NCBI GenBank assembly: GCA_964658305.1
Contig: OZ210885.1
Span: 2,666,001-2,730,000, forward strand
Length of the DNA: 64,000 nucleotides
Direction of reading: 5' to 3'
DNA from: Leptogorgia sarmentosa
Taxonomy: Eukaryota
The translations under genes were made by a program, and so were the position numbers. Below the pieces are notes generated by a model. It was not told the DNA's origin and made no database searches. It saw only the letters and a program-made list of their open reading frames with translations. Below are positions 1,685 through 63,930 of the stretch, in pieces; positions within the stretch are counted from its first letter, which is position 1, and every line of letters starts with the position of its first letter.

Positions 1685-3023
1685 ACAGCGTTAGCGAAAT
1701 TCAGTTATCTTTATTGATATATGAATATCAACAAATATTCACAAAACTAACTCATTGCGAAGTGATTCACTAAACATGAAAGTGTCTAGATCTTGTATTC
1801 ATGTAGTGTACGGTGAGAAAACGCTCACGTCATGCTTTCCGTACTGTTAGGTAATTTAAATCTTGTGACAATGATTATTTAAGGAATAGAAAAGCCGAAA
1901 GGTTCGTGTTTCCACACATTTCTCGGCGTTCTCACAAACTTGCACAAGTGTTCACATAACTCGATGTAAACATAGGAAAATGTTTTCTAGTATTTTTATA
2001 AAATAACACGATGGCAAAAGTGGAATAACGGAATAGTCAAAAGCTGCGGGAAATAGCTGTGTTTACATAATCTCATATCAACACGGCTGTTAGCCAATCA
2101 CGCGCGCGCAGTCGTTTTCACTTACTTCCGGTTATTTTATAAATAATATATAACAACGTGCTCTCCTGGTAATCACCATACGGTTGTACATTGTGGTATG
2201 GGGTTAGATTGCATTGTGGATTGCAGTGGCGTAGCGTGACTGCTTGCATGTATGGAGGGATATAAAATATTTTCATTTTGCCAAATGTTATGCTTGTAAA
2301 TAGGGGAGGGCGAATCTGACGAGGCGCCACGGTGCCACCATAGTTAGCGAGACATTTTTAACCGTTCAGAACACGTAGATTGCCGGAAACGGCCATTTCA
2401 GAGTTTAAATCTGCCTCTTTCAGCTTCTTCCTCCACAGGCGCTTTTATGCTTTCAGTGAGTTTTACCGACGATCATATTATGATAGTTTTTGTGCGATCG
2501 TGAAGAAGTTGTATAAGTCTTAATCAGTTTGGAAGAATGTTTCGTTGAAGTTGTTTTAATTCCTGTTAGGAAAATATTATACAGTTAACAGTAAGCATGC
2601 ATGTTATTTAATGCTGTATTCTTTATCTTACTTAAAAATTAACCACAATATTCTACTTGTAATAATTATTAACATCTATAGTTTCTACTGTTTGAAATCA
2701 CTGGTCTTCAAGAAATACGACATTTTTAGCGTCTTTATTGGATTCAGGCAACGGTTTGTTTCTTATCGAAGTTGGTAACTTTGCGACCGCATTGATTATA
2801 CCACTTTAAACCGCACTATAATAAAAAATACAAGTTAAATTTATGTTTTCAGCTTGCTGCTAAAGCGTGTCGTCGGCTAGAATAACAAAATCCATCACTA
2901 AAGCTAGGACGAGCATCTTAAAATTATTAAAACTTGTAAAACTGGAATGTGCACGGCGGGGAAATGTTCTAAGAAGCGGAGATGATGCTCAAAAATGATG
3001 CAAACTTCCGGACGTATTATGAA

Positions 3024-3266
3024 GAGAGGACCTGAAGGGGTAAAGTGGGAACTGGGATTTGCTTATTTTTGGCGGGGGAAATGGGATTTCGTGCACTGGG
3101 ACTAGGATTCATCAGCAAAAAAACATTAGAAAATATTAATGGGATTGAGAGTTGAGCAGGACAACCACTGAAACGATGGGATTTGTGCTTTAGAACACTG
3201 GATTTAGCTATTAAAATTCGGGCTGCATGGGGAATGGGAATAGGAACCCCCCTTCAGGTCCCTTTC
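3024..3266. mobile_element. MITE with GGACCTGAAGGGG terminal inverted repeats
   Basis: GGACCTGAAGGGG at 3028-3040 and CCCCTTCAGGTCC near 3249-3261; internal TGGGA repeats. Confidence 0.65.
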
Positions 3267-3706
3267 TCACTTCGCAATTTGCAACAGCTATACTTTCCGC
3301 GTCCTCCAACATATTGCGACCAAACCACAATTATGTGCATGAATTGTTCTGAATATTGGACGCTCTTTCTAGTTGTTTTTTTTCCATGCTCACTAAAATT
3401 AATAGCCTATTTATGCTTTAATGCAGGAATGACTGGTTTGGCACGTTTGAACCTGTTATCATTCACTAAGGAGCTGATTACATGATGGATTGAAAAGAGG
3501 AGAATAATTTGAATAACAAAAGGTCATATTATAATATTAATACACACTTTGTCTTTCTTTTTCAAATTATTCTACTCTTTTCCATACGTCAACTGCCGGG
3601 ATGAAATCCCAACCCGGGATGAAATTTCTCCATGTAAACAGCCCCTAACAGTTAAACTCAACATCTTTCTTGAAATATAAATATGCCTACAGCACATCGT
3701 ACTTAC

Positions 3707-3831
3707 TTTCCGGCGCTTCCTACAAGTATATTCATCATAGCATTGTCCATTTCTGCAGATTCCATTGCACTTGCAGCTCCAGGTGCAAAATCTGCCTTTG
3801 ATTATTTTTCTAACACAACCTCGGCAACCAC
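3707..3831 (-). CDS. Cys-rich cationic exon of peroxidase A (GGCRGCVRKIIKGRFCTWSCKCNGICRNGQCYDEYTCRKRRK)
   Basis: Acceptor TTTGTTAAG|GT is phase 1 and matches donor CCAG|GTATGC at 4012/4011; open for 41 codons with 8 Cys; ends at GTAAGT donor. Not in the ORF track. Confidence 0.72.
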
Positions 3832-6800
3832 CTTAACAAAGACGTGCAGAAGTCGACATCACTCTTCAATTATTCAGCTAAAGATCAATAAAGGCTCGGA
3901 AAGATGTGTTAAAAACATTAATTCATTATTAAAGCATCAACTATCAAGCGATTATTGAAATCGTTTATTTAATTGCTATCATCGTCAAGTATTATTGAAA
4001 ATATGGCATACCTGGTGATGCTGCGCCACCTGTCGATCCTTCACTTCTCCATTTGCTCAGATCGATGTCGGGTATTCTGTCGCAAAGTACTCGGTTGTTC
4101 ACCGTGCCAGCCCGGAAAGAATCCCTTTGCACCGAGACGATATTCGCTAAATTATCACACAAGATTCTTGACATTGACGCATTTCTAATTTCAGCCAACT
4201 GCTCTTCAGAAAAAACACCTTCTTTCTCGTAATAAAACCTATCACCATCTCGTACGCGTCTCATTTGTTCGCGAATAATACACCCAAATGTTGCACCAAC
4301 AATTCCGCCATTAGCTGGTGTTTCTGCAAGACCTGCCACCCATAAATCAGCCAGGTTTGGATCATCATTATACAACTGAGATAACAGTTCTCTGTTTTTA
4401 AAATCTACAATTTCTTTCGCCGTATCACAGAAAGATTTTGCATCCTTCAAACCGCATCCGCGCCTAAACGCGTTATAACCAGGTAAGCCGTGATCTCTGC
4501 CTCGCTGGATGTTCAGTGCCGCCAGGTTTAAACCAGGAGATGATGGACGTTCAAATAAGTTATTTAATAATCCATCTGCTAGCTGACGGTCGACTGTTTG
4601 AGACTCGTTTCCAAGTAAACCCAAGAGCAATTGCTCGATTCCAAAGGTGTTGATGAAAGTGTTGTTGAAAAACATTTCACGTAATGGTAGAGGATCTCCT
4701 GTTGGGTTGAAACCTTCATCCAATCGATCAAATGTTGGTCGGATCAAGCTGTGTCCAAATCTAAATGCAGCTGTAGAGAACGAATTGAGAATACCGGGAT
4801 TTACATTTTCACTATAATTCTCATACTTTGGAAGAGTGTTGCCAATGATGATTGGTAGAAAATCTTCATATGCGATTTTCTGTAAAACAGCTCCAACGAT
4901 TTTTCTTGTTTCCTGGTAGGTCGTCTCATTGTCCCATTGCGAGTTAAGCTGCTGTAGTTTTCGTGCAATCCTATTGTGTTCTCGGAGAAACAAGGTGTGC
5001 ATACTAGCAAGAGACATCTGTTCATTGGTTCGGACATCACCAGCTAAGAAGCAATGAGGTTGGCAGAAACTGTCTGGAGCCATGAGTCTACTGTCATCTT
5101 CAGGAAGGAATTCTCCATTGATTCCCGTTGTTGTATTCAGCAATGCTGTATCTAAATATGATGAAAAAGACTGTTGTTGTATGTTTTCTGCACTTGGGAT
5201 AGAAGGGACTGTGTTTGGTTCAAATCTGGCAGGCGCGAATGAATATGCATGTAAGTGGGTTTTTGAAATTGCCAATTTATCCAGTGTTTAAAACTATTAT
5301 GTTTATACTCTGAGAAGTCCTGTTCGTTTCGTTATCTAGAACAGTGTGGTGGAATGAATAAAATCATAAATGGAGCAGCTTGCAAGCAACTCAAGCATTA
5401 AGTTTGTGTACTTACTTCGTGAATCTCTCAAATTTTTCGCCAGCTCTTCGCTAGATCCATAAACTTGTGAGGCATCAACAAACGCTGTGTTGACGTTTAT
5501 TTGTTGTTTGGGCGTTATCTGGTTTTTTCTATCAATGATGCATTCGCTTGCAGATCTCGCAAAATGAATGGTATTGAAATTGCCAATTGGTAGGATTGTG
5601 TAACAAGGTGCACGAAAATCATCTTTTCCTCCATCGCCACTTTAAAACGAGGAAAAAATTAGTTGAAACGCGTTTCCCAGTAAAAAGAAGAAAATGAACG
5701 CCTTGCATGGTCATCGCATGAGAAAGTATGCTTTGTCAATGTGATTAACTAACATTAGCACGACTCCTCTACTAGGCCTAGGTTATTTTCCCTCTTGTAA
5801 TCAGGGGCCGGTTGTATCAAAGGCGTTTAGCTTAAACGGTGGATAAGTCGAAAATATCAAACGAAATTATGAAATATTGACTACAAGGAAACTAAACTTT
5901 TCTGTGTAAACATAACAACTATGCATGGAACTACACATTTGGTTGATAAAATTTGTGTATCTTTAGTATCATGCATTTTGTTGTATTATGCAAATATTTT
6001 CTCTATATGTTATATGTATCAATGCAATGCAGATTAAAACTTCATCAATGGTATACCTCAGGCTTTTTGACTATGGTTCCAACAGAACTGGGTAAACAAA
6101 ACATGCTTTAGAGATTGATCGAAATTACAATACAGCTTGTTGTGTTTGTTACTATAGGCGTGCCCTAATTCGTTATATCTGCAGAGACGTTTCCTAAATT
6201 TGCACATCAAAACAACACTATGAAATTCAGACTCTCTTAAATTAGGTCGTTCCTAATTTATGATAATGCAAGACATGAAAGTGACGGATTCTCCTTCAGT
6301 CACTTCAGTCAAACGTGCTCCATCAATTTTTAAGACAGTTGAAAAGTTTTAAGGTGAAAGACCACTCACGTACCTTGTCTTCATGCATCTGTCAGAATTC
6401 TCGCTTTCAGGAGAGAGATCCAAATCATGGTCTAAAAATTGTCCAAATTGCATGACCAAATGAGAAAGCTTGCTAATAGGTATCTGAGGTTTCGTCTGTT
6501 GTGCGATAAACTCTTTAACCACTTCAAATGTTGCTGGAATATCTGGGACATTATTTTGGCCTGGAAATCCAATAGGATCCTTAAATCCGTCAGGATCGAA
6601 ATATCTTGCAGGTAATAAACGATTGAGTCCTGTAGGCGCCGACCCAAACAAGGGATTGTTGAGGTTATTACACGTTCCATCGAATGTTCTATATTGATCA
6701 TTTTCGCCACATTGTGGGTTTCGCTTTCTACTACATTGCGCAACTTTGGACAACTGTCGTAAAGCTTTTGTTGAAAATAATGTATTCAATGACCAACGAA

Positions 6801-8905
6801 ACACAATTTGCTGATCTAAATAAAGAAAAAGTGCAAATGATTTGCATTAGTATCTGTCAACCATTCCCAAATCGAGGTTTTCGCAGGCTTTTGATCTTGT
6901 TACGGTATCTCCTCATAGAATTTAATGATTTAATTCGTTGCTTAATTTTCTGTTGCTCAATTGAATTTGCTTTGCCGCGAACTGCCCAGGTACACAATTA
7001 GATCTCATTTGGGCTAGAAGATCGCCTCTGAAGCAAGTAATTAACTAGGTAAGCAAGGAATCATGTTGACGTTGAATTATAGTATTCAGCATGAATACTG
7101 TCGTGAAGTGATGTTTATTTATCTAGACGCACACTGACAGTCACGTGAACAAATCCATTCTTATAAGTAATACTTGATAAAACATTTTTATTGCTGTTAG
7201 TGGAAACGAAACACAAATATATTATAGTATAATCATTTGACTTTTATATTGAGTTAGGTTGGGGACCGGTCATTATTTATAGCAGGGGTGGGCCCTGAAG
7301 AGAAAATGTTTTAAAGACAAAATTTTTTCTTACCCCACTTTCTTTTTACGAAAATTTTTTCTTACCCCACTTTCTTTTTACGAAATTTTTTTTTTACCCC
7401 ACTTTTTAAAACAAGGCAAACAACTTGATAAATAACTGGGATTATCACTCAAGCCGGAACAAGTTCCAAAATTTGTGCAAGCCGTCTTTAGCTAGTGGTA
7501 CCTTCTCATATCATATTTTACCCCACCCCAGACATGCCTAGTTATTTAGCTACCCCACCATTCTCTCTCTTCGTCCCCCACCCCTGTCATAAATAATGAC
7601 CGGTCCCTTAGCTTAGTAAATAAGACAATTCATAACATATCCCATTCATATTGCATAATGATGACTCCATAATGCTATTATTATGTTATTGTATGAGATG
7701 ATGAATAGAATAACTACCTGAAATTTTTGGAATATATTGTGCCACAATTTCATTTATTGCTTCTTGCAATGCAGTGTCAACCTTTGCAGACGCCATCATT
7801 TCATCAAATGCTTTACGATTTTTCTCTTTTTCTACCATCCTCATCATCCTGTGCAGAGAACCTGCCATCCCTCTTCCGGTGTTGTACTTTTCGTTTTCTT
7901 TTACCAAACTTCTCCATTTACGAATGGACGAACTCAAAAATGAGTCCCCAAACTTTTCACGGAAAACAATTAGATTAACCGTTACATCATAATTGGATTG
8001 CGAATAGCCACATGTTGTTGTGACTAGAACATTTGCGGTCAGATTCCTAAAATTCTTCTTTTGACTTCCTAAGTGGAATCTTGTATTCAATCTCACGATT
8101 CCTGTTTTATGATCAACAGTTATAACATTCCAGAACCAAAATCTGCCTGTCCGAAATTTCGTTGTACAACCAGTTGATGACGTCTCGATCTTTCCAAGCG
8201 GGCCAGACAACACATCTTCTGTCGCCAAGAATGTATAGGTGGTTGTCCGTCCTACAGTGAACACGCGATAAGGAAAATCAATGTTGATGCATTCAAATAC
8301 ATTAAAATAATCACAAAGAGATGGAAGAAGACGATACTGCTTATTAAAAAAACTCCCCTGTGAAAAAAACTGTGGTCAGAGATTACAATCTGATCTGCAA
8401 CTGCAGCATTATCTTTCATAAATTCACTTTTGTTTGGAAAGTTCGCTGTTTAGGTGTAACGTGTTCCTTGTATACAGCTAATTCGGGAAAGATTGTCCCC
8501 AAAAAACCTTAAACCTTAAACTTTAAGCGCGCAAGGTGAGATGGATAACTATTCATCTGTCGTGAAACATCGTGAAAATAAAATGTCTGAAATGTGCATG
8601 GTATATGTTATGTTCGATCTTTCGATAATTTCAGTTTCAATGGAAATTTTTGCTAGTAAAGTCAGCAAAGTTACTAAAGTATTAAAAAAGGGAAAACGTG
8701 TTCCGCAAAACAAGTTGGCCGGCTCACGAATCACGAGAAAATAAGAAAACACTTTCACGAGGACGGGAAAGTGCCAATTCACGAATCACGCAAAAAGTAA
8801 ATCTAAACTCTCATTCACGTTTCACACAAATATCTAAAACATACCTCTACTGCCAGGCAAAAACCCAAGACAAATTAACAGAATTAGAAGCGGCGAAAAC
8901 TTCAT
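3707..8905 (-). CDS. Secreted animal heme peroxidase A (peroxidase-cyclooxygenase superfamily) with cadherin-like N-terminal domain and C-terminal 8-Cys exon; 3' end uncertain
   Basis: Manual model, exons 8845-8905 ([20 protein letters not shown] signal peptide), 7718-8251, 6374-6815, 5416-5639, 4012-5151, 3707-3831; GT-AG introns with matching phases. Motifs: MQFGQFLDHDL (distal His), NTAFVDASQVYGS (Ca site), AGDVRTNEQ (distal Arg/Glu), AFRFGHS (proximal His), IQRGRDHG, GDRFYYE. Core exon boundaries are conserved in paralog B. Confidence 0.88.
7262..7607. mobile_element. MITE in intron 2 of peroxidase A
   Basis: Perfect 19-bp TIR GGGACCGGTCATTATTTAT / ATAAATAATGACCGGTCCC, extended by CAGGGGTGGG; internal short tandem repeat; absent from the paralog intron. 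Confidence 0.85.
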
Positions 8906-15809: not shown

Positions 15810-16396
15810 TGAATTTAACTCTGCTAAATCGGAGACGTTTCTTTCGACCAGCCTGGTCTATACTGAAAGAGAAAGAGGAAAAGTCCGATTAGTAAGTTTA
15901 ACTGACTTAGTTGCAATTAGTTGTTTCTAAATCTTAAACACATCCGTACACTAATTTGTCTTTAAAATGTTTATAAAAAATAGCGAAAAAAACAAGAATA
16001 AGAGAAAACAGGATGGAGATTATATAAAATTAAGTTTAACAACTTGTCAATAAAAGACTATATAGATTGTTGCAAAAAATTGTGATTTTTATACACGTAT
16101 GGGAAAATACGTCGACATTAAGTTAAAGATGTACTTTAAGAGATTCAATTAAAGCTTGTTCCAGTCAACCTTTTGGTTTGATCATGTTTTTAGGAATCAA
16201 TTCACTTACGTTTATAGTGACAGGTATTACATGTCTTCCTACAAAACGCCTTAACTGCTGGCCGTGTATTGCAGAACTTAGAATGGGCAACACAGAAGGC
16301 TGGCAAGCTGTCTCCACAAGCTAAAACAAACATTAAAAAAAGAGAATGAGCCGAGAACTCACGCATAGGTATGATATAATACGTGCATGGTTCAAT

Positions 16397-17034
16397 CTAC
16401 GGCTTACCCAAATAAGCACCCCTCTGAATAGAGGTGGGGTTTATCCAGCGATGGTAAGCCAGATCAACTGCGCCATCTCCATTCAGTTCCACAAACCTGG
16501 CTCCAAGATCTCTGTACCCGTTAGCAGCGATATGGAACGGTGGTGTCCACTGAGGCACAGATCTCCAACCTCTGCCTGTGTTCACATAAGCGCCCTTCTG
16601 CTGATTATGAGAGTTGATCCACCGATGGTAAACGAAGTCGATTAATCCGTCACCAGTGACGTCAGCAAACCGAGCTCCCAAATCACCATGTCCGTTGGCA
16701 GCAATATGGAAAGGAGGTATGTAGGATGGCGTCCACGTCCAACCATGGCCATTGTTGATGTATGCTCCCTTTTGCTGGACATTACTGTTTAGCCAACGAT
16801 GATAAACCATGTCAATTCTTCCATCTCCATTAAGATCAACGAACCGCGCTCCTAAATCACCGTGACGATTTGCGGCAATATGAAATGGGGGCGTGAATTG
16901 GGGAGCCCAGACCCATTTGTATCCGTTATTCAGATATGCTCCCTTCTGCTGTACATGAGAGTTTACCCAACGATGATACACCATGTCTATTCGGCCGTCG
17001 CCATTCAGATCTACAAATCTAAAGAATATTATTT

Positions 17035-17085
<51 letters not shown>

Positions 17086-17771
17086 TTGTATACTTACCTT
17101 CTCTAAAGTAAAAAAATTAATAAAGGAAAAAAGAATTCACTAACGAAATTGCAGTTACTGATTACAATACCTCGCTCCCAAATCGCCATGGCGATCAGCT
17201 GCAATGTGAAATGGTGGAGTAAAGAGTGGGACCGACTTCCAGCCATTTCCCGTATTAAGATAAGCGCCTTTTTGCTGTCTTTTGGAGTTTATCCAGCGGT
17301 GGAACACAAAATCAACTTTTCCGTCACCATTCAATTCGATAAATCTAGCGCCCAAATCGCCATGCCCATCCGCTGCAATATGAAAAGGTGGTGTAAACTG
17401 GGGAGCCGATTGCCAACCATTCCCGGAATTCAAGAAAGCCCCTTTTTGTTGAGTTTTGCCGTTGATCCATCGATGAAAGACAAAATCGATCTTTCCGTCT
17501 CCATTGAGCTCGACGAATCGTGCACCCAAGTCTCCGTGGTTATCGGCGGCGATGTGGAATGGAGGAGTGTACTGAGGTGCTGAGACGAAGCCCACATTCG
17601 CAACATTCAGGTAGGCGCCCTTCTGGATGTTGTGCTGATTAATCCATCGATGGAAAACTTGGTCCATTCTGCCATCGCCATTTAGGTCAACAAAGCGTGC
17701 CCCCAAATCACCATGGCGATCGGCGGCAATGTAAAAGAGAGGAGTGAACTTTTCAACAAAATTCCAGTATC
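16397..17771 (-). repeat. Seven ~58-aa coding repeats (consensus W..P.FTPPFHIAA..HGDLGARFVDLNGDG.IDxVxHRWIN...QQKGAYLN.G.G)
   Basis: Seven (D/E)(L/V)(N/T)GDG..D loops counted across two exons, joined by a phase-2 intron at 17019-17170. Confidence 0.92.
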
Positions 17772-20700
17772 CTTAAAAAATATCAAAATTCGGGTTTTTC
17801 ACCAAAATTCTCACGAGGATAAATCCGCAGCTACCACGAAACTTCCGCATTGTACCTTTTAATTCTTCATTTGAAATAGACTCGATTCATTGGTTCTAAA
17901 ATAGTATGTTGTAATCCACCCTCTTACCTTCCTCAGGACGGGGAGTGGTCATGTACACGCAAGAATTATTAGGCTGCATGTAGTTGTAACATATAAAAGC
18001 AACGAAAACGTTTGACGTGCCAAAGCAATGATTACTCTCAAACTCTTCTAGTAGTTCTTTTAGTGATATTAACGCCAACAATTTATTTATTCAAAGATGT
18101 GACATACCTGGTGGTGCACCAACGTCTGTTGATCCTCCACCATCACTTTTCCATTCTTTCAGATCGATGCCGGGTATTCTACCACAGGATACTCGGTTGT
18201 ACTCAGAGCCAGCAAGGAAAGAATCCCTTTGGACCGATACGATATTCTCTAAATTATCACAGAGGATTCTTGAAAACGATGTCCTTCTAATCTCAATTAA
18301 CTGGTTTTCAGAAAAAACACCTTTCTTCTCGTAGAAAAACCTGTCGCCATCTCTTACGCGTCTCATTTGTTCGCGAATAATACATCCAAATGTTGCACCA
18401 ACGATCCCGCCATTAGCTGGTGCTTCTGCCAGACCTGCCACCCATAAATCAGCCAGGTTTGGATCATCATTATATAACTGTGAGAGCAATTTCCTGTTTT
18501 TTAAATCAACGATTTCTTTCGATGTATCAGTGAAGGATGTTGCATTCTTCAAACCGCATCGCACCCTAAACGCGTTATAATCAGGTAAGCCGTGATCTCT
18601 GCCTCGCTGAATGTTCAGTGCCGCAAGGTTTAAACCAGGAGATCTTGGACGTTCAAATAAGTTATTTAATAATCCATCTGCTAGCTGACGGTCGACCGTT
18701 TGAGACTGGTTTCCAAGTAAGCCCAATAGTAATGGTTCTATGCCAAACGTGTTGATGAAAGTGTTGTTGAAAAATAATTGGCGTAAAGGTAAAGGATCTC
18801 CTGTTGGGTTGAAACCTTCATCCAATCGATCAAATGTTGGTCGGATCAAGCTGTGTCCAAATCTAAATGCAGCTGTAGAAAAGGAATTAAGAATGCCGGG
18901 GTTGACTTTATCATCATAATTCTTATAGTCTGGAAGAGTGTTGCCAATGATGACTGGTAGAAAATCTTCATATGTGATTTTCTGTAAAACAGCTCCAACG
19001 ATTTTTCTTGTTTCCTGGTAGACCTTCTCACTGTCCCATTGCGGGTTAAGTTGCTGTAGTTTCCGTGCGATTCTATTGTGTTCTCGGAGAAACAAGGTGT
19101 GCATAGATGTAAGAACCATCTGTTCATTGGTTCGGACATCACCAGCTAGGAAGCAATCAGGTTCGCACAAATTGTTGGGAGTCATGCGTGTCATGTTATC
19201 TTCAGGAAGAAAATCTCCGCCGATCCCTGTTAACGTTGTCGTCTTGAGCAATGCTTTGTCTAGATATTATGATAAAAATAACGCATGTGGTTATTGTTGG
19301 ATGTTTTTGTAATAGGAATAGAAATCGTTGTCATTGGGCACAATCAGAGAGCAGCGAGAAATTTTCTATGAAATTGCTATTTTATTCGCCGTCGCCTATT
19401 TTCCTGCGTGTGAGCAACAAGATAAACTTGAGGTGATGTTATAGGAGGAGTACAGGTGGATATGTTTATGTCAATTAACAAGCAGGGAACATTCTACGAA
19501 TACAAACATGTTGAAGCTGGTTTCGGACAAGGCACTAATTTCCAGCCCTCGAAATGTCAAATCTTCTTGTAATGATGACTAAATCCTTGGTTCGTTATTT
19601 TTTACAAAACATTGTAATTCTAACAATAATTTGTTTTATATTTATAGTTTGCCTACTCACTTTTCGAATCTGTTAAGTTTCTTGCCAACTCCTCGCTAGA
19701 TCCATAAATTTGTGATCCATCAATAAACGCCGTGTTGACGTTTATTTGTTGTTTGGTGGTTATACGGTTTTTTCTATCAATGATGCATTCACTTGGAGAT
19801 CTTGCAAAATGAATGGAGTTGAATTTTGCAAATGGTAGGATTGTGTAACAGGGTGCACGAAAATCTTCTTTTGATCCATCACCACTTTAGAAACAGAAAA
19901 TAATTAGGTAAGACGTTTTTCCATTTAATACAAGAAGAATGAAGAAGTCATGGTCATTGCATGAAGAAGTATACCTTGTCAATGTGATTGCACTACCAAC
20001 CCCCCACCACCTCATGCTTTCCGGCATGAAAATATTTCGCCAAAAATATTTGCGTAATTCTTTTGATGTTTATCTTTCAAAGAAAAATTTGTTTTCAAAT
20101 TCTAAAGTGTCGATTCCAGTTTTTAAAAATTATTAAATTCAAAATTTAACGTTAGTGTAACTCGCAATCCCCACCGATCCAGTTGAACCGCTAAAAAGCA
20201 TGCGGTTGGTGTCGTTGGTGGTCCCCCCAAGGTTTTGACGATGGTCCCAACAAACAGGTGCTGTAAAAGTTTTTTAAAAATTAGGGCAAAATTTGTTTAT
20301 GTATATATAGCCTTCTTATATGACCCAACCCTATCCTAGCCCATGATCACCCAAAATTTGCTAAAAAATAGAAAAACATGACGCTGAATAATAGAAGATA
20401 AAAGGCTTTCAAGAGGAACACCAACTAAACTACCTTGTCTTCATGCATCTGTCAGAATTTTCGCTTTCAGGAGAGAGACCAAAATCGTGGTCCAAAAATT
20501 GTCCAAATTGCATGACCAGATGAGAAAACCTCCAAATGGGCATCTGAGGTTTCTTCTGTTGTGCGATAAACTCTTTAACCACTTCAAATGTTGCTGGAAT
20601 ATCTGGGACATTATTTTGACCTGGAAATCCAATGGGATCTTTGAATCCGTCGGGATCAAAATATCTTGCAGGTAACCAACGATTGAGTCCTGTAGTCGCC

Positions 20701-22673
20701 GACCCCAACAAAGGATTCTTGAGGTTATTACACGTTCCATCGATTGTTCTATATTGGGCATTCGTGGGACATCTTGGAGTAGGTTTACTATTACATTTCG
20801 CAGCATTGGACAATTGTTGTAAAGCTTGTCTTGAAAATAATGTATTTAGTTTCCACCGAAACACAATTTGCTGTTCTAAAGAAACCAAAACATTAAAGAT
20901 TAAAAATGACATCAAACATTCCCAAAGAGATCCTTTCGTCAAAGTACAATACACGAATTAATTATTGCTGATTTGCTGATTTTTTGTATAATAAGTACCT
21001 ATTACATATAATAAGTAATAAAGGCTTGGTACAATCAGCAAACGATGTAGTGCTTTGCAGTTGTAGTCGTAGTGTACAAACTGCCTGGCAATATTTTAGA
21101 CTTTAGCAATAAACTTAAGTCATGTCGTTGAATGTAGTTTAAAAACAGTGACTGTGTATCATCCATTTAATTTGAGGCATTTAGAGAGGCAATGTCACCG
21201 ATTGTCCGCAGGTTACACAACCAGGTTTTAATCTCGAATAACGACTTTTATTATTCACTTTAAAGTATTCTCAATTTGGTTGGTTAATTTAACTGCAATT
21301 ATCTGTGTACAAAGCTGAACTGCGTTCAGAAGACGATTTGTCGTCCCTTCTTGAAGAAAAAATGCAGGTAATTTAACCAATCAAAATTAAGAATAATGAT
21401 AAGTGAATCATTATACAACAATTGTTGATTTGATTTTGGTTTTCCAATGCGAATTCATAAAAATACTGTCACCGTAGTAACATATCCTAATCATCGTAAC
21501 TATATTCTAATCATTTTGTACATTTTGCGTTATGATTACTTGAAATACTGTACCACTTAGCGTTAGATGGCTTATAGAATAACTACCTGAATTTTTTGTA
21601 GTAAATTTTTCGGCAATTTCATTTATTGCTTCTTGCAATGCAGTGTCAACCTTTGCAGACGCCATCATTTTGTCAAATGCTTCAGGATTTTTCTCCTTCA
21701 CTACCATCCTCATCATCCTGTGCGCAGAAGTTGCCATGTCGCTTTGGGTGTCAAACTTTTTGTTTTCTTTTACCATACTTCCCAATTTACGAATGTACGA
21801 CTTCAAAATAGAGTCACCAAAGTTTTTACGGAAAACAAATAGATTAACTGTTACATTGTATTTAAATTTCGAATAATAACCACATGTAGTTGTAACTTGT
21901 ACATTTGAACTTAATTTCTTTAAATTGTGCTCGTGACTTCCAAAGTGGAATCTTGTATTGAGCCTCACGATTCCCGTGTCATTGTCAACATTTATACCAT
22001 TCCAGAACTGAACCCTGCCAGTCTGCAGAAATTTCGTTGTACAACAGGTTAATGACGTGTCAATCTTACCAAGCGTGCCAGGCAACACATCTTCTGTCGC
22101 CATGAACGTATAAATAGTTGTCCTTCCTACAGTGATTGGCATAAATAACAAAGATGCAACTATTTGTTTACCAGCTAAACCTCAAGCGAAACCTCGTGAA
22201 TCTATTGTAAACTAGATTCAATGATAATTATTATGCTGTTGGGTTGGCATATACATCAGCGATCTTACAAAAAAAAGTTGTGTTTGTTAGCTGTTTCATA
22301 CCAGTCCATTTTTGTTGTTTTTGATTTACGTTACCGTTCACATGAACAATTTGTTGTTATAAAGCTGCTTACTATTTCCTAGATATTCATAATTATACTA
22401 ATCGTTTCTCATATTATTTTGGATTTCGGTTCGACAAGCTGAAATTTAGTAACCACTGAAACTTGGTGATATCTCCGTGACATAATAATTAGAATTATAA
22501 AACATCCACATATTATTGTAAAAAATATGCTCGTATGAATTCTGAGTTCTGTCAATTCATTTACGAAACTGTATGGGGGGGGGTTAAATAAAATCAGCAT
22601 TTTAAAACTTACCTCCATTACTGGGCAAAAATCCAAGACAAAATAACAGAAGTGTTAGCGATGTGAACTTCAT
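16397..22673 (-). CDS. Secreted animal heme peroxidase B with cadherin-like N-terminus and C-terminal seven-repeat FG-GAP/VCBS-like beta-propeller
   Basis: Exons 22613-22673 ([20 protein letters not shown]), 21587-22126, 20434-20875, 19661-19884, 18108-19259, 17171-17771, 16397-17018; all phases compatible. Same catalytic motifs as A (QFLDHDF, GDVRTNEQ, FRFGHS, QRGRDHG). Donor CCAG|GTATGT at 18108 joins acceptor TTTTAAG|GA at 17771 in frame. Confidence 0.88.
17035..17080. repeat. (AT)n microsatellite in last intron of peroxidase B
   Basis: Direct reading. Confidence 0.95.
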
Positions 22674-27658: not shown

Positions 27659-30600
27659 TCAACTTAAACGCAAACTAAAGCCACATGATTTGCAACAATT
27701 ATCCGCCATGAATGGTACGAATTGTTTCCAACAATATCCACGGTTTTTCCAATATTGACAGTCCTGATTAGATCGCCTGTCACCGCTACAAGCTTCAGAA
27801 GCTGAAAAGAAGACGATTATTTGAAGCGTGAATCAACAATGCTAGCGACTTTAGAGCGTTTATTTTGGGGGTGATTATTAGCTAGCTCTTCCAAAGAATA
27901 TTCATAATAACACATACCAAACATTTCAGACGTGGTTGCCCTCACTGTTTGAATAAATTAACTCCATAAGTCGATAATGGTGCCGTCAAAGCTATTATTA
28001 TTCAATTACATGGAAAAGACATTCAAAAGTAAGAATTTCTCGCCATTCAAGCATTCAAGATCAATTTTAGGGTTGATGATACGGAGCGTGACAGAGGGGT
28101 TATACATTATAGAAATGACAAGTTACATGTGGTTACATGTGGTTACATGTGGTTACATGTGGTCACATGTGGTTACATGTAGTTACATACGGACAAGCTT
28201 TGGTTACAACGTCGAGCCTGAGGCGAATCCGCATAAAAAACGATTTCGCGTTTACACGGTTTTTATCCATCCATATTTTTAACTAGTAGGCTTTCCCAGC
28301 AGCTCGAATATGTCAAAAATTCCTGCGGATAGCAATTTTTAGTCCATTCCATCTTTCAGCTCTTGAAAATATTCTTACCATTGCACTCGTGAACGTTCAT
28401 TATTATTTTGTATAATAGCTATAATTCACCATTAATTTTTGACTTGTAGAGTTAATTTATTTAAAACATGTCTGACATTTCTGGTGATGAGGTTGCAATG
28501 TAAAAGTTGTCTTACCCCCAGTGCTACATGTTCTGCAACAATTTTTCTTCATGTATGTTGCAAATCTCTGTCCTTCCTCACAATATCCACGTGCTTTCCA
28601 GAATAGACAGCTGTCAGAAGAGTCCTTGTCAGCTGTACAAACTTCAGAAACTGAAAAGAGAACGATTATTCCACTCGTCAATCAACAAGGCTAGCAGTCA
28701 AGTGATTTTAATGAGTTTATTTTGAGGCGTCGTTGCGAATGTTCCAACAATCTGACTTGCGTGATGTATCAACAGAAAAATTGACAACATGGTATTCGGT
28801 GCTGGATTAACCCATTCTAGGGTCGGGGGCAACTATGGGACCATGATTCGGTGAATGTGAAACATGCTCAAATCAAAATTAAAATCTTGTCCATTCGGAC
28901 TATATCATTAATTATTATATGGCAAGTGTTTCTGAGCGTCCGTCTGCTAAAATACAGCATTCTGATTGGTTCCTGAGCGGTCGGTAACCTGCAGTACAGA
29001 CCGCTCACGTTTAGCGACGTCGGTTGTTTATTGAATCAAGCGAGAACGAAGACGAAATAAGTTAAAAACATGTTTGAACATTCTGTTCTTTGTTTTTGGT
29101 AGCCAACAACATTTTAGAGAACAATTATTTTTAGCGAACTTCCTCAGCTGTTCTTATATTAATTAGCCGTTTAGCGGCTTTGCTCATAGTGTCGAATTGT
29201 TGTAAACGATAATAAATAGCTTATTGACTGAGTTTTTCGATCCGTACTGGAGGATACTGCACGGTCAAGTTCTTTTCTTGTTTGCGAGAAAAGAACTCGA
29301 CGTCGACCGTGCAGCATCCTCCAGTACGGACCTCACACTCAGTCAATAACATATATATATATTATACTTCAAATTCAAATTGTCCAATGAGAAACAGCAT
29401 TTTTACCACTTGATATAGTGTGATTTTCACTCAAATTCATGATTTCGGAATCCAGCGTGGGATATTATAATATTTGAGGTATATAATATTCATAATAAGG
29501 CCACCTCTGAACAACTTGTTTTGTTAAAAAAAAGGGTTTAAAAGTTTTGTTACCTCCAGTGCTACATGTTTTGCAACAATGTTTCCGCATGTATATTGCA
29601 TATTTATTTCCTTGCTTACAATATCCACGTCTTTTCCAATATCGACATTTCCTCCCAGTCTGCAGGTCAGCTTTACAACCTTCAGAAATAAAGAGGACGA
29701 TTATTCCACGCGTGAATCAACAATGCATGCTATAGGGATTTTAAGGCCTTTGCGCGTCGTAGCGATAACGAAAAAATTGATTGAAATAAAAAAGGAAAAA
29801 TGAAGAGAGAATGCATAGAATTTTACAACGATCACAAAACATGAGATCCACATGGTATTAGCCATATTGAAGGGTTATTGACTGAGCGTTAAATCTGTAC
29901 TGTGAATATCAGACCGGGGTTTTTTAATATGGACCGAGCGATGAAGGAGCGAGGTCAATGCGAAAAGCCGAGGTCTTATAATCCACAGTACAGACCGAAC
30001 AAGCGAGGTCAATAATCTGTTTATTATATGGCTCAATTGAGTCTGAGCATATGCTTTTCCCGCGAATTATATCGGCTATCATCAGTTTCACTTGGTAACA
30101 GTACGTAAACAAACATGCTCAATCGAAAAGAATTTGGTTGTTTGAAATTTTTGTCTTTAAATTTTAAATGTGAAAATCTGAAAATCAATTAGCAAAAATG
30201 TTTTCTGTTTGCAAAGCAAATTCCTGCCCGATATACGACAAGGCGCCGCGGGCGAGGGTACTAATTCCTCACGGCTATTTGTCCCCGGACAAAGTAAAGC
30301 ATAGCGGATAGCGAATTTCAAAGTCGTATCGCCACCAATTTGAGTTATTGATCAAGTGTAAGGGAGGTCATCACCGTTCTTAAATATATGGCGGACTTTC
30401 AAGAGCTAACTACTGCAAGACAATCACATGATCCCTTTTGGAAATCAGCTTTCGCTGAAAAGGCTAATGTGTTTAAATAAAGTTGATCACACTTCTGAGA
30501 AAATAGAAATGTTAGGAAAACGCTGCGAAAGTGGAAGAAACGACTATGGTTTGAAAGACAAGATACGTTCGTCAATATATTATCGGAAGTAAATTTTTTT

Positions 30601-33600
30601 GTTTTGCGTATTTGCTATTTGTATGAAAGGTCCTCGAAGCCGCATTTTAATGTATTCACGCTTTAATATTCCACAGTATAAGTTTATTTTTTTAAATGCA
30701 AGACTTTACAAAATATTTACCTTTAAGAAATTAAATCAATCGAAGATTGGCTAGAGCCTAGAAATCGTTTCATTTCAGAACTTAACTTAAATATTTCAAA
30801 ACGTTTTGTGCAAATAATTGTACTTTTTCTCACAGTGGCCATTTTGAAGTTCATGATTAATTTTATTACGCATAATAATAACGTACGGACAACGAATGGT
30901 CCTCCAAATTAAAAGAAAAGGTCGACAATAAAACCAAGATAAAAGCTGATAATTTATCCGTCTTGAAGAAATGTACAGGAATATGATTATATGAATTCCC
31001 GAATATAATAAATTACACAATTCCCTTATGAGAAAGTACGTGCATGCCGTATTTGAAATAGCTTGTTCTTTCGTAGATGCCTAAATTTTCAGGTAAATTT
31101 TTAGGACGGCAATGCCGAAACATAAACATGATAATTAATTTAGCTAATGAGCTTAATATGAAAAAGAAAACAAGGACCAAATATTAACTGAGTGTGAACT
31201 GTGAAGTCTGTACTGGAAAGAAATGACTGAGGAGTTTTATCGCGAAGTCTGTTCGATAAAAATCGAAGCAATACATTCCCGTACAGACCGAGCAAACAGG
31301 TTATTGAAGGATTTATTATAATTATGGCTTTGTTCGATCGGAGTTTCTTTAATCGGATTTGTAGAAAGAACCAGAAACACTTTCACTGCTGAAACTTTTA
31401 GCCGAAAATACTGGCGGTTGCCTACCATTGATCCATCCTTACATGCAGGATACATTGTCTTTTTTCGCTATTTCCTTCCAAACAATCTATATATAGATGC
31501 TTTGCGCTTCGCTAATCAAGTTCCCGCCTCGATTGGGAAAACCCTAATTTACATCTTACAATACCTACCTGTGCCTGTCCCTGTGCCTGTCCCTGTGCCA
31601 GTGCCAGTCCCTGTGCCTGTCCCTGTGCCTCCCGTTGATCCGCAATACATTGTCTTCGCTTGTGCAACATCACCCTCACTTAGTCCTTGCCTCTGTCCAA
31701 TACTAGCATCATTTTTTGCAGTTATTGTTTTCATTCCATTTTTTGAGAATGCATATTCACCATATTGCATTATACTCGCGTAATCATACCCATGCGATTT
31801 GTCGTCTGTTAGACCGGTTTTTTTGTCGAAATTATATTTCAGGTCTGAAAGGTTAACAAAATTTAACACATAATTATCATATTACATAGAGCATAATTAT
31901 ATAAATTTCGTGATGCGAAAGCACTTTCGGAAGTTGAGAACATGAGGGTTTAGTCTACGGTAAAACACAGATCACAAGGCGTGTTTTTATATGTCCCACC
32001 ATCATGTGTTTTTGGGTGAAAAATACATCTTGAGAACAGTAAAATAACTTTGCCGTGTTCTCTGTCCTAAATTGGCGATTTGCACACGTTGGTTTCACGT
32101 AGTTAGTGCCGCTCAATTTCAGTCAGTTGTGAAATTAATCAAGCCACATAATTAAGGGTAGTGCCAGCAATTCGCTGAGCTTTGTATAACAGAATGAAAG
32201 CACAGAAGAGTACTAAATGTTGTTACATATATAGTAGCTAAATTATAAGAACATACCGTCCCTGATATTTTCCCAATGTATCGTTAGATATTGGTCACGA
32301 TCTGAGCGAGACTGTTCGTGCCAGAATCCCAAAGCGTGGCCTAAAATACATTTTAAAGAAACAATTGAGCAAAAACAACAGAAAGTTTGGGGAATTAATC
32401 ACAGTTGCCTAACAGGTTATTAAGTAAAATATATTTTAGCGCCACAAGACCGCAGGGTAAGACTTAGCCGGGGAAGGTGAGCATCACCTTTGCTGTAGTT
32501 TAAATATGGGACAGATAAAAATACCATTTGTTTTTTCACAGAAACTTAGAAGGTAGGAATGGAAAGAGGCTGCTAATCATGATCATGCGTGTTACTGTAT
32601 TCGGAAAATTCATCATATTCATTACAGATTCAGATTTCCACATTATGACGTAAATTTAGTAAACTGTGAAGTTTGGTTGCAAAATATCGTAAAATGTGGA
32701 AACTACATAATATTATGCAGTCATGTAAGCCCAGGTTGCAAAATTCCAAATAAAACTATTATTAAACTTTGGTTCCTTTTTCCAGGTGTGATAATGATAT
32801 GATTGGTAATTAATATAATTCCTAATTCAAACGTTTGTCTAACTGTGGAATGGTCCATTGATTTGATTGCAAATAAATGAACAACATTTTACGAACCGAT
32901 TTCGTGAACAATAATTCCATGGCTCATACATCCTGGATATTCAAGAGAAATAAGTTGCCGACTATTTTGGAAACCAACAGCTGACGAGCACCTGAATTAA
33001 TATATAACAATCCTCGATTAGATCTTGTTGTTCTCTATTATGCTCCCTAATTAATATTCGTTCTCTAATATATGTCCCTACGCTTGCCATGACCTAACAG
33101 TAGAACTCACCCCTTTCCCGCACCAAAGACAATGCATCCTTTGCAGCTGCTCAGACTTCGCAATCGTACGAAACGTAAACACGGAACCTTATCCATCCAC
33201 TCTTCTATTGCTACATGGATTAGTTGGTGATGTTCTGACGATCGAATCTCTGCATGAAAATGTAAGTATAAAAATTAAAATTTAGAACGCAAAATAGAAA
33301 TCAAAATGACAATTGAATCTACAAATCTTTAAAAAAAATCAAGAAGTATGATAATGACATTCAAAGACTTAAATGTCTTCACAACTGTTCCCAGATTCTC
33401 AAAAACAAACAAATATTAATGTAGTTCTAGGGCGATTATGAGAGACAGTATGTCAAATAGTTGCTATTACATAACACTGATTTGATTGATGAATTGTCTC
33501 GTGATATCGAATAGAAAGTTCCATTTTTTAAATGTCTCGGCTCTCGTCTCGTTGAATAGAATATTCCATCGTTCACCTCATGAAAGTAATCTTACCATTG

Positions 33601-36600
33601 CACTCACAAACATTCATTATTTGTATAATTCACTTTAAAAAATGGCAGCTCTGAGTGCTTTAACGTGTTTCGGAGAAGGCGACAATCCATCCCCAAAAGT
33701 GGGTTTCTCGCTAGACGGATTCTCTGATGGTTTTTTTTGGGTGACAAACTCTAGAAATATATCATTGAATTTTGAAAGTGATGAATTCCCTGCATTTTGA
33801 GGAATGCATTCCACGGTTCCACCAGATTCAACGCCCTCCCTTTGGGATATCAAAAGCGCTTGATAATGACGTCTTTGAAATTATTAGGAAGATTTTGTGT
33901 GGTGTAGAACAAATTTGGCTAACCTGAAGCTTCAATGTAATAGTTGAAATTTGCATATTAAATTAAAATGTATTAATCACAATTATTATTCAGTTTTCGT
34001 AAACTAGTGTTCTGATTGGCCGATTTGTACCACGTGACTTCATTTTACATAACAACAATGCACGGCCGTGCATTATAGCCGTGCGTAAACTTTTTATCGC
34101 ACTGCAAGATGGCTTCCGAGTGCGAGAAGTTTTTAAATTTGTCCACCGAGGATATAGAGGCAATAATTTCTGTTTTAATTATAAATTGTAATTATAAATG
34201 TTGTACTATAAAATATTTTTTGTAATAAATATGAATTGTGTGGCGTTTCTTTTTGCATATTTCTCTATGCATGCATATAACAATGTGAAATGCTTGTTCT
34301 TTTGTGGTTTACTCAAATTGAATATTAAAACGTTTAAAGCACTCTTTTTCGTGCATTATCGGCATTTTCAAGCACTCATTCGCGAACAAGAAACTCGAAA
34401 TTTAACACTGCACTCGGCTGCGCCTCGTGCAGTGTTAAATTTCTTGTTTCTTGTTCGCGAATTCGTGCTTGAAATGCCGATAATGCACTCAAAGAGTGCT
34501 GTAATCCTTAATTAACGTTAAAAGAAGAGAACAACTATGGAAGCATACAGTACCATTCACGTGATCGATATTTATATAGTATATTTGCACTGGACAACCT
34601 TTTTGGAAATAATAAATGTGCAAATAATTTATTCATATTTAGAAGATGGCTTACGATTTTGGTCGATATAATATCGTATTTCGTGTTTGCCATTCTTTTC
34701 TGGCCAAATATGTCTTTTGTTGTTTGAGGCCGCCCCACGTTTCCGATTTTCAATCATTTCTTCCACTGATTTTGTCTTGATGATGTCTCCCTCAAAATAC
34801 TCCTCTTTATTTCCTGAAAAATGTTTGTTTTTATTGTTGAGCGCTTGTCAATTAATTGCAACATAAGGACTCATACAAAGCGGTTTTCCACTTGCAAATT
34901 TTGTCGCGCGAATCGGATTTTTTCGTGGCAAAATAGTTGGCGCGAATAGTTCTTTGTTTCGACTTTCAAATCTACGTAGCTCGCTACTTTTTTCGCCGTG
35001 AAAACGTGCGAACGGGTACAAATCATTCGAACTGCTTTTTTTGCCGTAGCGAACGATTCACAAATTTTATTGCCATATAACATTTATGAACACGCATGCG
35101 CGTGAGGGAAAAAATCGCTTCTCACGACAAAATTTACAAGTGGAAAACCGACTTAACAGTCGCCTGCACTTCAATATTTGGTGCGAAAAAACCTGGGTAT
35201 AGCCACAGGAACCCAAATAGTTATGCACGTCAGGTTATTACATTATGGCTAATAGTAATAACATCTTGGCTGGAACTCTGTTACGATAAAATAAACATGC
35301 ATTTACACTTTCGATGGAAACAGAGAAAAAAACACGACTTTCTGAAAGAAAAACAAGATACAAATGATCTTGGATACCTCTTCTTAATTTTCTACATAGT
35401 TTTTAGACAAATATTACGCACAGAAATACTTAAATTTGTTCAATAAAAAGTGTTTCTTATCTAAATATTTTGTGTATAGATAGGTGGGATGCAAAAGGCC
35501 CTACAAACGTCATCATCGGAAACCGCTTCGGCTGAGCTCTTATTGGCTGTTGACAACTCTGAAACTTAATTCTTAGCCAATGTTGAACCGATGTTGATAT
35601 CAGCCAATAAGAGTATGTAGTTTTTTATTCAGTGTGAATGCATAACTATTTTTATCGTAAAAGAGTTGCCAGCCATATTACTACTATTGCCTATTACATA
35701 TGCCTTTGGGAATATGATGGGCTTATACAAGGGTGGGCTTATATTTGGAACGTTGTGAGCCTAAGTAACCTGGTGTGCTTATCTACGGGTGGGCTTGTAT
35801 TCCGGGGGGGGGGGGGGTTGGGCGGGGGGAGGGGAGTTATAGTCGGAGGTTCACGGTTGTGTTTTTCTTTCCTATGAGAGATCGTGATTGCAATTTCCCT
35901 GGGATTTGCCGGCATTGAAAAACAGAGTGGAAACACAGAACACGACTAGAACGACGTCCTCCTCTCTCCCCCTCATAGTCGTCCTGCTCCACTGTTTTTG
36001 ATTCCGACATATCATCCATAACTACCTGATTTCTGCTCGGCCTTCTCGTTTACTGCCAGGAGCTTGTCAAACGCTGAGTTGTCTTCTGAATTGTCGTCAA
36101 AATTTTCTATGGTAAAATGAATTATACAGTGAATTTTACATCAAACCTAATCCAACAATTTGGAAGGTGTAATTTCATTACGTGTTACCCCTTCCATCGT
36201 CCTATTAAGAGTGAAACTATACGCCAATTACGAAAACAATATATGCGTTTATACTAAACAGATTATTTCAAGATCATGATAAAATCGCTGCCATTTACAA
36301 CATTTTCAACATTTTCCACTTACCATTTTCAACATTTTCATAAATCTCTGACTTGGGGAAGCCTAAAATTGGGAAGATTACAAAATTATCCCGTCTTTCT
36401 TTCCTCAATTAAGCAATCAATATTATGGTGAACATATTCATATTCAGCGCATAGGTTACTTGAAAATGTGCTTTTGTAAGCACATACATTTTCTCGAAAC
36501 TTTGCCAATAAGCTTTTCATGAAAACTCGCCAATTCAACACACTCGAAGTTAGCCAAGCTGCTTCAATTGAATGGTTTCAGTTTATTCATTTAAAATTTA

Positions 36601-62600: not shown

Positions 62601-63783
62601 TTATAATAAGGTTTTGAAATGGGTAAATTTGGTTTTTAGAAAGTCACATTTTTCACAAACAATCGCAAAGCGCTGTCTCTATTTTATCTATATCATAATA
62701 ATTATGTTGTCAAGTTTCAATTCCTTATGCAATTTGATATGATCGCGCGAATTCCGAAATGCGAGTCATGAAAGCTTATATCAAGTATTGAATACGTCTC
62801 ACGTTTTAACCACGCAAAACCTCACGTCTTGAAAGGAATTAGTATTTGCGCTGTTCGCCTATTCCCTAGCAGTAAACCATTTTATACATGCATGCAAGAT
62901 CACGTATTAGGGACAGGTAAGATGCGTGTAACAAAAAGCTGAAAACAAATAAGAGTTGATCACCAAGCTACATAGGCGCAGATACATGTCACTTTGTGTA
63001 CCTATTTTTTGGTGTTATCACAACACTGCCAGATTTTCAGTATGCAGTTTCGAAACCGGAAAACAAAGCAATAAAAGCCAAAATGGCCGACGCAAACTGT
63101 TTAATCTAATATTATTTTAATCTAATAAATGTTGAATTATTAGAAATACATGCAGTTGTGTGTCGTATAATAAATTCCCTCGGGCTCGGAAAAATACTTA
63201 CGAAACTCGTAAAATACCAGGCCGTATTGCATTTCAAACCATTCAATAAGCTATATGTACATGTAAGTCGCATGCAATAAACTGCAAGATATAAATATTG
63301 GATCTGAGATCTCATGGCTCGTCTGCCCAAACAATTCCATAGATAAAAAATGCTCAGTTGGAATAGTCTGTAATGTGTGTGCACTACCTGTTAAGATAAA
63401 TTTTGGGAATATAGCCCTCAATTCATTCCATGTTAAAAATCTCGCGAAACCTAAACCGCTTTAAGACTTTTCATCCGTTTAAAAATTATGGAAAACTTTT
63501 GGGAAACCTATGATATTATATGAACCTACTAAAGACGGACGGCTTGTCGTTTAGACCGCTATACCCTATACCTGTCGAAGGGGCCCCAATATCAGTTGGC
63601 AAAATCGGCCCGACCGCAAATCACTGTTTGTAGCTAAACCTACGGCTTTCAGCAAGCTATAAAATTTTGCCAATTTCGAAAACTGCGCAAAATAATTTTC
63701 AAAAATTCTATCTTACCTTCACTGCCGGGCAAAAATCCAAGACAGAATAACAGAGGTAAGATTGTCAATGATGCAAACTTCAT
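53645..63783 (-). CDS. Astacin (M12A) zinc metalloprotease 2 with three ShKT-like domains (paralog of 27659-38318)
   Basis: Exons 63717-63783, 62204-62284, 61024-61179, 60132-60273, 59867-59958, 59249-59332, 57495-57716, 55483-55608, 54636-54770, 53645-53787. Same motifs ([32 protein letters not shown]), frame intact, same C-terminus [12 protein letters not shown]. Confidence 0.92.
55154..55316. mobile_element. hAT-like MITE
   Basis: TIR CAGTGGCGTAGCCAG / CTGGCTACGCCACTG with longer internal symmetry; 8-bp TSD TTTGTCGG / TTTCTCGG (7 of 8 match). Confidence 0.85.
58627..58771. repeat. Long imperfect hairpin in astacin 2 intron 6
   Basis: TATCATTTATAGACCC...GGGTCTATGAATGATA outer arms; TGATATTTTC / GAAAATATCA inner arms. 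Confidence 0.7.
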
Positions 63784-63930
63784 GACCACAGCGATCCTTC
63801 GTACTTCACTTCCAAAGCGATTTGAACTTTCCAGTCTTTCTTTGCCCGATTTTATATTCTCCCTTTCTTTATCTCTTTATCATTTTGTGAAAAACAGGAA
63901 CATTTTTTCCCTGCATGTTGTCCAGCAATT
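63784..63930 (-). promoter_or_regulatory. TATA promoter/5'UTR of astacin 2 (shared promoter family)
   Basis: TATAAAA starting at 63856, 73 nt upstream of ATG; CGAAGGATC; upstream TGCTGGACAACATGCAGGGAAAAA box. Confidence 0.7.

Follow-up and report, generated by a model that had tools for sequence, protein, structure and literature searches.

Secreted multidomain enzymes of the haem peroxidase family PF03098, such as peroxidasin and peroxinectin, serve in matrix cross-linking or defence according to the accessible part of PMC4420034, and the accessible text of PMC6409789 describes ShKT domains as common on peroxidases. In gorgonians, peroxidase activity is reported to rise after injury and fungal infection (accessible part of PMC5880021). 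Among propeller proteins, the fungal lectins PVL, AAL2 and PAL have blades of 56 to 58 amino acids with calcium loops, and the GlcNAc site of AAL2 and PVL consists of Asn/Asp, Trp and His residues in a connecting segment (PMC4483166). Streptomyces UmbA4 offers a functional analogy, being a lectin propeller by which an effector is directed to a glycan on a surface (accessible part of bioRxiv 10.1101/2025.04.24.650519). Here we analyze a 64,000-nucleotide stretch of Leptogorgia sarmentosa DNA (assembly GCA_964658305.1, contig OZ210885.1, positions 2,666,001 to 2,730,000; hereafter the window), in which a minus-strand gene at 22673-15858 is predicted to join a haem peroxidase to a seven-bladed propeller.

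The gene model has nine exons and a 1248-amino-acid frame without internal stop, and all eight introns are GT-AG and in phase. The predicted domain order is a signal peptide, an unassigned N-terminal domain, a haem peroxidase, seven FG-GAP blades and a ShKT-like domain. The peroxidase-propeller fusion, proposed in a preliminary description of the locus, is well supported by comparative evidence, and we consider it highly probable. We give about even chances to the fuller proposal that this is one secreted protein with an intact lactoperoxidase-like peroxidase, a PVL-like propeller and a ShKT-like domain, in which the propeller acts as a multivalent surface-binding, probably glycan-binding, anchor.

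The peroxidase is encoded by exon 3 (20434-20875; start of An_peroxidase with the distal GQFLDHD, PF03098 E value 5e-21, and a myeloperoxidase/lactoperoxidase match), exon 4 (19661-19884; TAFIDGS, the peroxidase calcium-binding motif) and exon 5 (18108-19259; main peroxidase body and a Gly-rich linker up to a phase-1 donor, PF03098 E value 3e-121). The catalytic residues Q326, D329, H330 and D331 (exon 3) and R465, E468, H558 and N638 (exon 5) are present. The distal G-Q-x-x-D-H-D signature reads QFGQFLDHD at residues 323 to 331, R465 and E468 form the R-x-x-E motif with its ester-forming Glu, H558 and N638 are the proximal His and Asn, and T399, F401, D403 and S405 make up the calcium motif; these match the superfamily signatures given for peroxidase-cyclooxygenases in the accessible part of PMC4420034. 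Lactoperoxidase and myeloperoxidase share all four features and match with E values of about 1e-85, whereas the window protein has a propeller and a ShKT-like tail in addition. Myeloperoxidase has Met where the window protein has Gln469, so two ester links to haem, and not the third, are expected. The domain is predicted to be a working lactoperoxidase-like enzyme that, by analogy with its family, would use H2O2 to oxidize halides or thiocyanate. Its closest named single-domain relatives among the best 120 of 3518 matches are from Dendronephthya gigantea (70%), Paramuricea clavata (56%) and Nematostella (54%). The protein had been set apart from peroxidasin, and a Pfam scan of its seven coding segments (exons 2 to 8) indeed did not find the LRR, Ig and VWC domains of long peroxidasin. 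Peroxinectin differs as well, since its integrin-binding KGD motif is absent and no [RK]GD occurs in the 1248 residues.

Seven repeats with DxxGDG loops and invariant HRWxN and IAA motifs had been claimed to follow the peroxidase. We found seven repeats, spaced by 59, 58, 58, 58, 58 and 58 residues, with HRW.N and IAA in 7/7; all seven loops are of the calcium type, although the first residue is Asp in four and Glu in three. The repeats do not form a single exon: exon 6 (17171-17771; PF13517 E value 2.8e-9) carries blades 1 to 3 and the start of blade 4, which is split by the 152-nt phase-2 intron 6 (17170-17019), and exon 7 (16408-17018; E value 8e-15) carries blades 4 to 7 and ends at a phase-1 donor. 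PF13517 (FG-GAP_3) scores 37.9 and 55.6 bits, against a curated cutoff of 26.9. Since the window domain is split by an intron, the protein P0008, 83% identical to the window propeller over 402 amino acids, was folded in its place by AlphaFold with a 25-row alignment, which gave a model of seven repeating strand units (pLDDT 90.5, pTM 0.86). Among 48,161 representative chains, PVL ranked first (Z 22.4, rmsd 3.6, 336 residues aligned), followed by galactose oxidase (Z 14.1), an AA5 alcohol oxidase (14.0), a Tc holotoxin chain (13.7), UmbA4 (13.0), PLL (12.8), CRTAC1 (10.8) and integrin alpha5 (9.6); the top three in Foldseek were AAL2, PVL and PAL, with a TM score of about 0.5. The P0008 model has the seven four-stranded blades, shifted closure and calcium loops of the PVL/AAL2-type fold, and the seven-bladed, PVL-like fold suggested earlier was thereby upheld by structure prediction.

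The elements FHIAAD-x-HGD and HRW-x-N are highly conserved over 144 blades from animals and bacteria, a set in which blade cutting missed some blades of several proteins, and they occupy the same two elements as the sugar-site residues of AAL2 and PVL. From the general topology of propellers, they would lie on the face opposite the calcium loops. Several observations nevertheless speak against a lectin of the PVL kind. The AAL2 pattern N/D-x(6-7)-W-x4-H is absent, at the sequence level, from 7/7 blades; identity to PVL and AAL2 is just 16 to 19%, with the Foldseek score as low as that given above; the closest predicted structure is the bacterial SpvB/TcdB_midN (TcB-like) propeller cluster, with a TM score of 0.94; and the HRW motif is largely lost in the fused propeller of D. 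gigantea. The SpvB/TcB propeller docks on protein in Tc toxins. The fungal lectins are the closest solved fold; the window propeller is, unlike them, fused to an enzyme. UmbA4 is a structural match, but it has six blades and 14% identity and is part of a bacterial toxin particle. A profile search of the PDB gave nothing significant. Because the site motif is missing, the propeller falls outside the PVL/AAL2-type lectins despite its PVL-like fold, and any ligand probably differs from theirs. It may still work as a PVL-type lectin does, and the modeled fold suggests that it could bind glycans.

In the proposed mechanism, a secreted peroxidase would be tethered to a surface through the propeller, using up to seven sites on a repeated ligand, and the production of hypohalous acid would be concentrated where the propeller binds. 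By analogy, one face would hold Ca2+ in its Dx(N/T)GDGxxD loops, and the other would carry the ligand pockets, formed by the invariant F-H-I-A-A-D/N-x-H-G-D loop and the H-R-W-x-N end of strand 2. Surface targeting of the enzyme is most likely; a microbial or mucus glycan as the target, and epithelial or mucus defence as the role, are our guesses. A possible though less probable explanation is that the fusion is real and the propeller is a Ca2+-stabilized docking domain for protein or matrix in the style of CRTAC1, integrins or TcB, so that the peroxidase would cross-link mesoglea, sclerite or axis matrix. It accords with the seven calcium-type loops, with CRTAC1 as the best PDB sequence match of the propeller (E value 6e-4), with the SpvB/TcB-type propeller as the nearest predicted structure and with the haem peroxidase reported in the axial skeleton matrix of Corallium rubrum (accessible part of PMC7853314). 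However, the Z score of PVL far exceeds those of TcB, CRTAC1 and integrin alpha5, the near-identical polar and aromatic motifs of each blade are easier to reconcile with numerous equivalent sites for a small ligand than with a single protein interface, and RGD and KGD are both lacking. The propeller is small, repetitive and well predicted, and its ligand is open to direct test. If its ligand is a glycan, the propeller would represent a new class of propeller lectins across bacteria, soft corals and comb jellies. Besides, the locus bears on which gorgonian enzymes provide the induced peroxidase activity and on how they are aimed.

A tandem paralogue lies at 2744-8905 on the minus strand (7 exons, 865 amino acids, intact model) and is 78.5% identical to the fusion protein over 800 amino acids. 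From the same donor, at 4012/4011, it leads to a Cys-rich tail (exons 3831-3707 and 2815-2744) and not to a propeller. This tail resembles those of the related proteins P0543 and P0544 (tblastn E values 6e-4 and 4e-4), and no Cys-rich tail exon was found between the donor of the fusion gene and the tandem paralogue. The comparison argues strongly that the fusion arose by swapping the Cys-rich tail of its clade for a phase-1 exon cassette of propeller and ShKT; the locus, with neighboring peroxidase copies that bear unlike tails on one splice junction, is a clear natural example of modules being exchanged. It is very unlikely that the fusion is a recent chance chimera, spliced but with a propeller that contributes nothing. 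The sister copy does carry the other tail, and a second record of the fusion was not found in the window's peroxidase clade among the matches listed; but the frame, phases, seven motifs and catalytic residues are all intact, the dN/dS of the peroxidase between the two window copies is 0.29 (556 codons) at a dS of 0.32, and a similar fusion is present in a separate peroxidase clade. The Cys-rich tails themselves (P0543, P0544 and the window exons) are basic, about 65 to 75 amino acids long and without Pfam match, and we would guess at a small, peptide-antibiotic-like domain. A weak match to the peroxidase signal exon (E value 7e-4) at about 63700-63790 on the minus strand is perhaps the first exon of another copy.

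The exchange depends on a junction that had been recognized from a strong donor, CCAG/GTATGT, inside the apparent peroxidase end PPGMSHL-stop. We located this donor at 18108/18107 and a phase-1 acceptor, ttttaag/GATACT, at 17771; the 336-nt intron 5 between them (17772-18107) contains the read-through stop (18093-18091). The donor matches CAGGTAAGT at 8/9 positions, a score found at 5 of the 3440 GT sites on the same window strand. DNA contigs from the same sample cover the peroxidase end, intron 5 and the start of the propeller. The three runs behave as DNA, since they come from one sample and show no joint at any intron, and use of the junction was judged by comparison with paralogues and relatives. 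P0543 (898 amino acids on a 3052-nt Logan contig) passes all four upstream junctions of the gene model (71% over 827 columns), and its intron-free frame suggests that it is derived from RNA. It continues VPAG/GYSC where its cluster-mate P0274 reads PTG/MFAK and on to a stop; likewise, P0544 continues NSPG/SCQV where P0277 reads SPG/MIHL-stop, which closely resembles the window's own read-through, PPG/MSHL-stop. P0543 and P0544, both apparently spliced, depart from the read-through at the same glycine, into the Cys-rich tail.

A wider comparison drew on 117 non-RefSeq peroxidase relatives from the best 120 of 303, the domain end being locatable in 113. Gly stands straight after W-x in 84 of these 113, followed mostly by K, N or E and by a tail of 1 to 106 amino acids, as expected from reading into a G/GT donor. 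In the closest genomic relatives among the matches listed, the linker ends in Gly-Met (8/10) or Gly-Thr (2/10), and the tails differ in length and sequence, as G/GTATG or G/GTACG would give. In addition, a second propeller copy from the same sample matches 17653-17779 (17 differences over 127 nt), and its similarity breaks off right beyond the acceptor. We strongly infer from these comparisons that splicing occurs at 18108-17771, with a minor short isoform possible beside the fusion. Two features count against this: intron 5 contains another in-phase donor about as strong, AAG/GTAAGA, at 17928/17927, and AATAAA occurs at 18091 and 18087, at the read-through stop. They would fit two genes, a peroxidase ending at MSHL-stop by intronic polyadenylation and a propeller with its own first exon (ATG at 17979, donor 17928/17927), as would the existence of the stand-alone propeller-plus-ShKT proteins P0011 and P0138, but this is the least likely explanation of all, because the candidate first exon lacks the signal peptide that the stand-alone homologues have, paralogues with a G-M..HL-stop read-through splice at that Gly, and the density of AATAAA here is about 1.1 per kb. 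Consistent with the earlier claim that the repeats have no signal exon of their own, the ATG-to-donor frames in the intron are all hydrophilic (hydropathy over 8 residues at most 0.44, versus 2.0 to 3.8 in four real leaders).

Some further observations concern this region. Beyond the read-through TGA, there are 54 further open codons in the peroxidase frame (17928-18093, minus strand), up to the donor at 17928/17927, which is in phase with the propeller; read-through of the stop would also yield a fusion, although this is probably chance. A short stretch of intron 5 at about 17846-17923 is common to other contigs, and the same-sample runs over 17560-18330 show several further peroxidase copies.

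The architecture had been called unrecognized. No description of it was found in the literature accessible without subscription, but the pairing of An_peroxidase with FG-GAP_3 is already present in two uncharacterized D. gigantea RefSeq models (XP_028415843.1 and XP_028416808.1), in which a propeller of the same family (49% identical) stands after An_peroxidase. Nor is it common, since the two domains occur together in 2/565 proteins, the D. gigantea models P0121 and P0036. Thus, the architecture is rare and not unique, and the window protein is very likely a known type of enzyme in an undescribed version with an exchanged tail. The D. gigantea models belong to a different, tectonin-bearing peroxidase clade; their propeller follows a Cys-rich linker and its blades are degenerate, a ShKT domain is absent, and the models look partial. 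A quick tree of 88 peroxidase rows placed them in the tectonin clade (SH-aLRT 99), with the window clade apart (98 within 96), which suggests a separate fusion event. A full-length fusion in the window's peroxidase clade was not found among the best 120 of 152 propeller matches, nor among the best 120 of 3518, 120 of 303 and 150 of 13766 in the other searches; by eye, which is a weak test, no close peroxidase and close propeller open reading frames came from contigs of the same length. Octocoral peroxidases have other partners, namely tails of the fn2, trypsin-like, ILEI or Cys-rich kind, or tectonin propellers at the N terminus. The D. gigantea proteins P0221 and P0121 bear N-terminal tectonin propellers, and P0121 suggests tectonin, peroxidase and FG-GAP propeller in one chain.

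The propeller module has a distribution of its own, and its mobility, like the ShKT-like tail, the second in-phase donor and the two AATAAA signals, went unmentioned in the preliminary description. It follows a signal peptide and precedes a ShKT-like tail, with all seven blades, in P0011 and P0138; it follows an astacin in P0017 and, in the ctenophores Mnemiopsis (73%) and Bolinopsis, a helical domain. It is also present on beta-helix proteins. In bacteria it occurs in a stand-alone seven-blade Myxococcus protein (64%), in a Cystobacter M57 protease fusion (62%) and inside SpvB/RHS proteins, including one of a Bathymodiolus symbiont that is 65% identical to the window propeller. The SpvB/TcdB_midN and myxobacterial FG-GAP propellers are of the same repeat subfamily as that of the window, the above TM score of 0.94 being between predicted SpvB/TcdB_midN and window-type models, but they are bacterial and joined to toxin-shell or protease domains. 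Among the best 120 of 152 propeller matches, Mnemiopsis and Dendronephthya are the only named eukaryotes, and this patchy spread suggests exchange between animals and bacteria. A quick, unrooted tree of 44 propeller rows grouped the window with seven similar proteins (97), and weakly with the ctenophore type (91), and did not separate animals from bacteria. A scan of JGI metagenomes yielded 43 loci, at best 64% identical and none like a close animal relative, and a search of phage sequences gave no match. The terms FG-GAP, VCBS and propeller are absent from the main text of a Mnemiopsis gene-transfer paper (PMC6005172), whose supplements could list them. We tentatively suggest, as a doubtful but broader possibility, that the 58-residue HRW blade defines an undescribed seven-bladed lectin class shared with myxobacteria and TcB-like toxins and probably of bacterial origin, which serves octocorals and ctenophores as an aiming plug-in; through two or more fusions to peroxidases, and others to an astacin and the helical ctenophore domain, it would create exon-swapped receptor-effector immune proteins.

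Ctenophore-type proteins (P0004, P0001, P0002, P0007, P0015 and P0021) combine an apparently helical domain of about 230 amino acids, with a hydrophobic segment, and five to seven blades. The blades are often near identical (91% within P0001), suggesting that a single blade was recently amplified anew. The minus strand of the window also contains two genes for relatives of the P0017 astacin (about 27660-36110 and 57400-62300), with no propeller on either in the window; the first encodes a linker of Gly-Thr repeats, and three ShKT-like exons come after it, at about 29680, 28640 and 27800.

The remaining exons of the fusion gene lie at its ends. Exon 1 (22613-22673) provides the ATG, a hydrophobic signal peptide (residues 1 to 20, hydropathy 2.95) and a phase-1 donor, and its start matches that of the apparently spliced paralogue P0543. 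Exon 2 (21587-22126) encodes an N-terminal domain and helical pro-region (residues 21 to 200) that aligns to P0543. It gave no significant match in a Pfam scan, nor against the cadherin-like N-terminal domain of Nematostella P0224; a single-sequence model of its fold was of low quality (pLDDT 34). The repeat region had been thought to end at 16397, but the stop there is intronic: the donor at 16408/16407 leads to exon 8 (16210-16320), with a six-cysteine ShKT-like domain (PF01549 E value 0.0015; 19.5 bits, slightly below the cutoff of 20.9). Its GAYL-[AS]-C junction and ShKT-like tail are also found in P0011, P0138 and P0017. The predicted exon 9 (15858-15862) consists of 5 nt, the last codon and stop, and is the least certain exon, without homologue support. 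Intron 6 contains a TA microsatellite and, at 17098-17102 on the minus strand, a micro-exon-like element in which a strong donor, AAG/GTAAGT, lies 5 nt beyond a polypyrimidine tract and AG; its inclusion would shift the frame and introduce a stop in blade 4, as a possible regulatory or dead exon.

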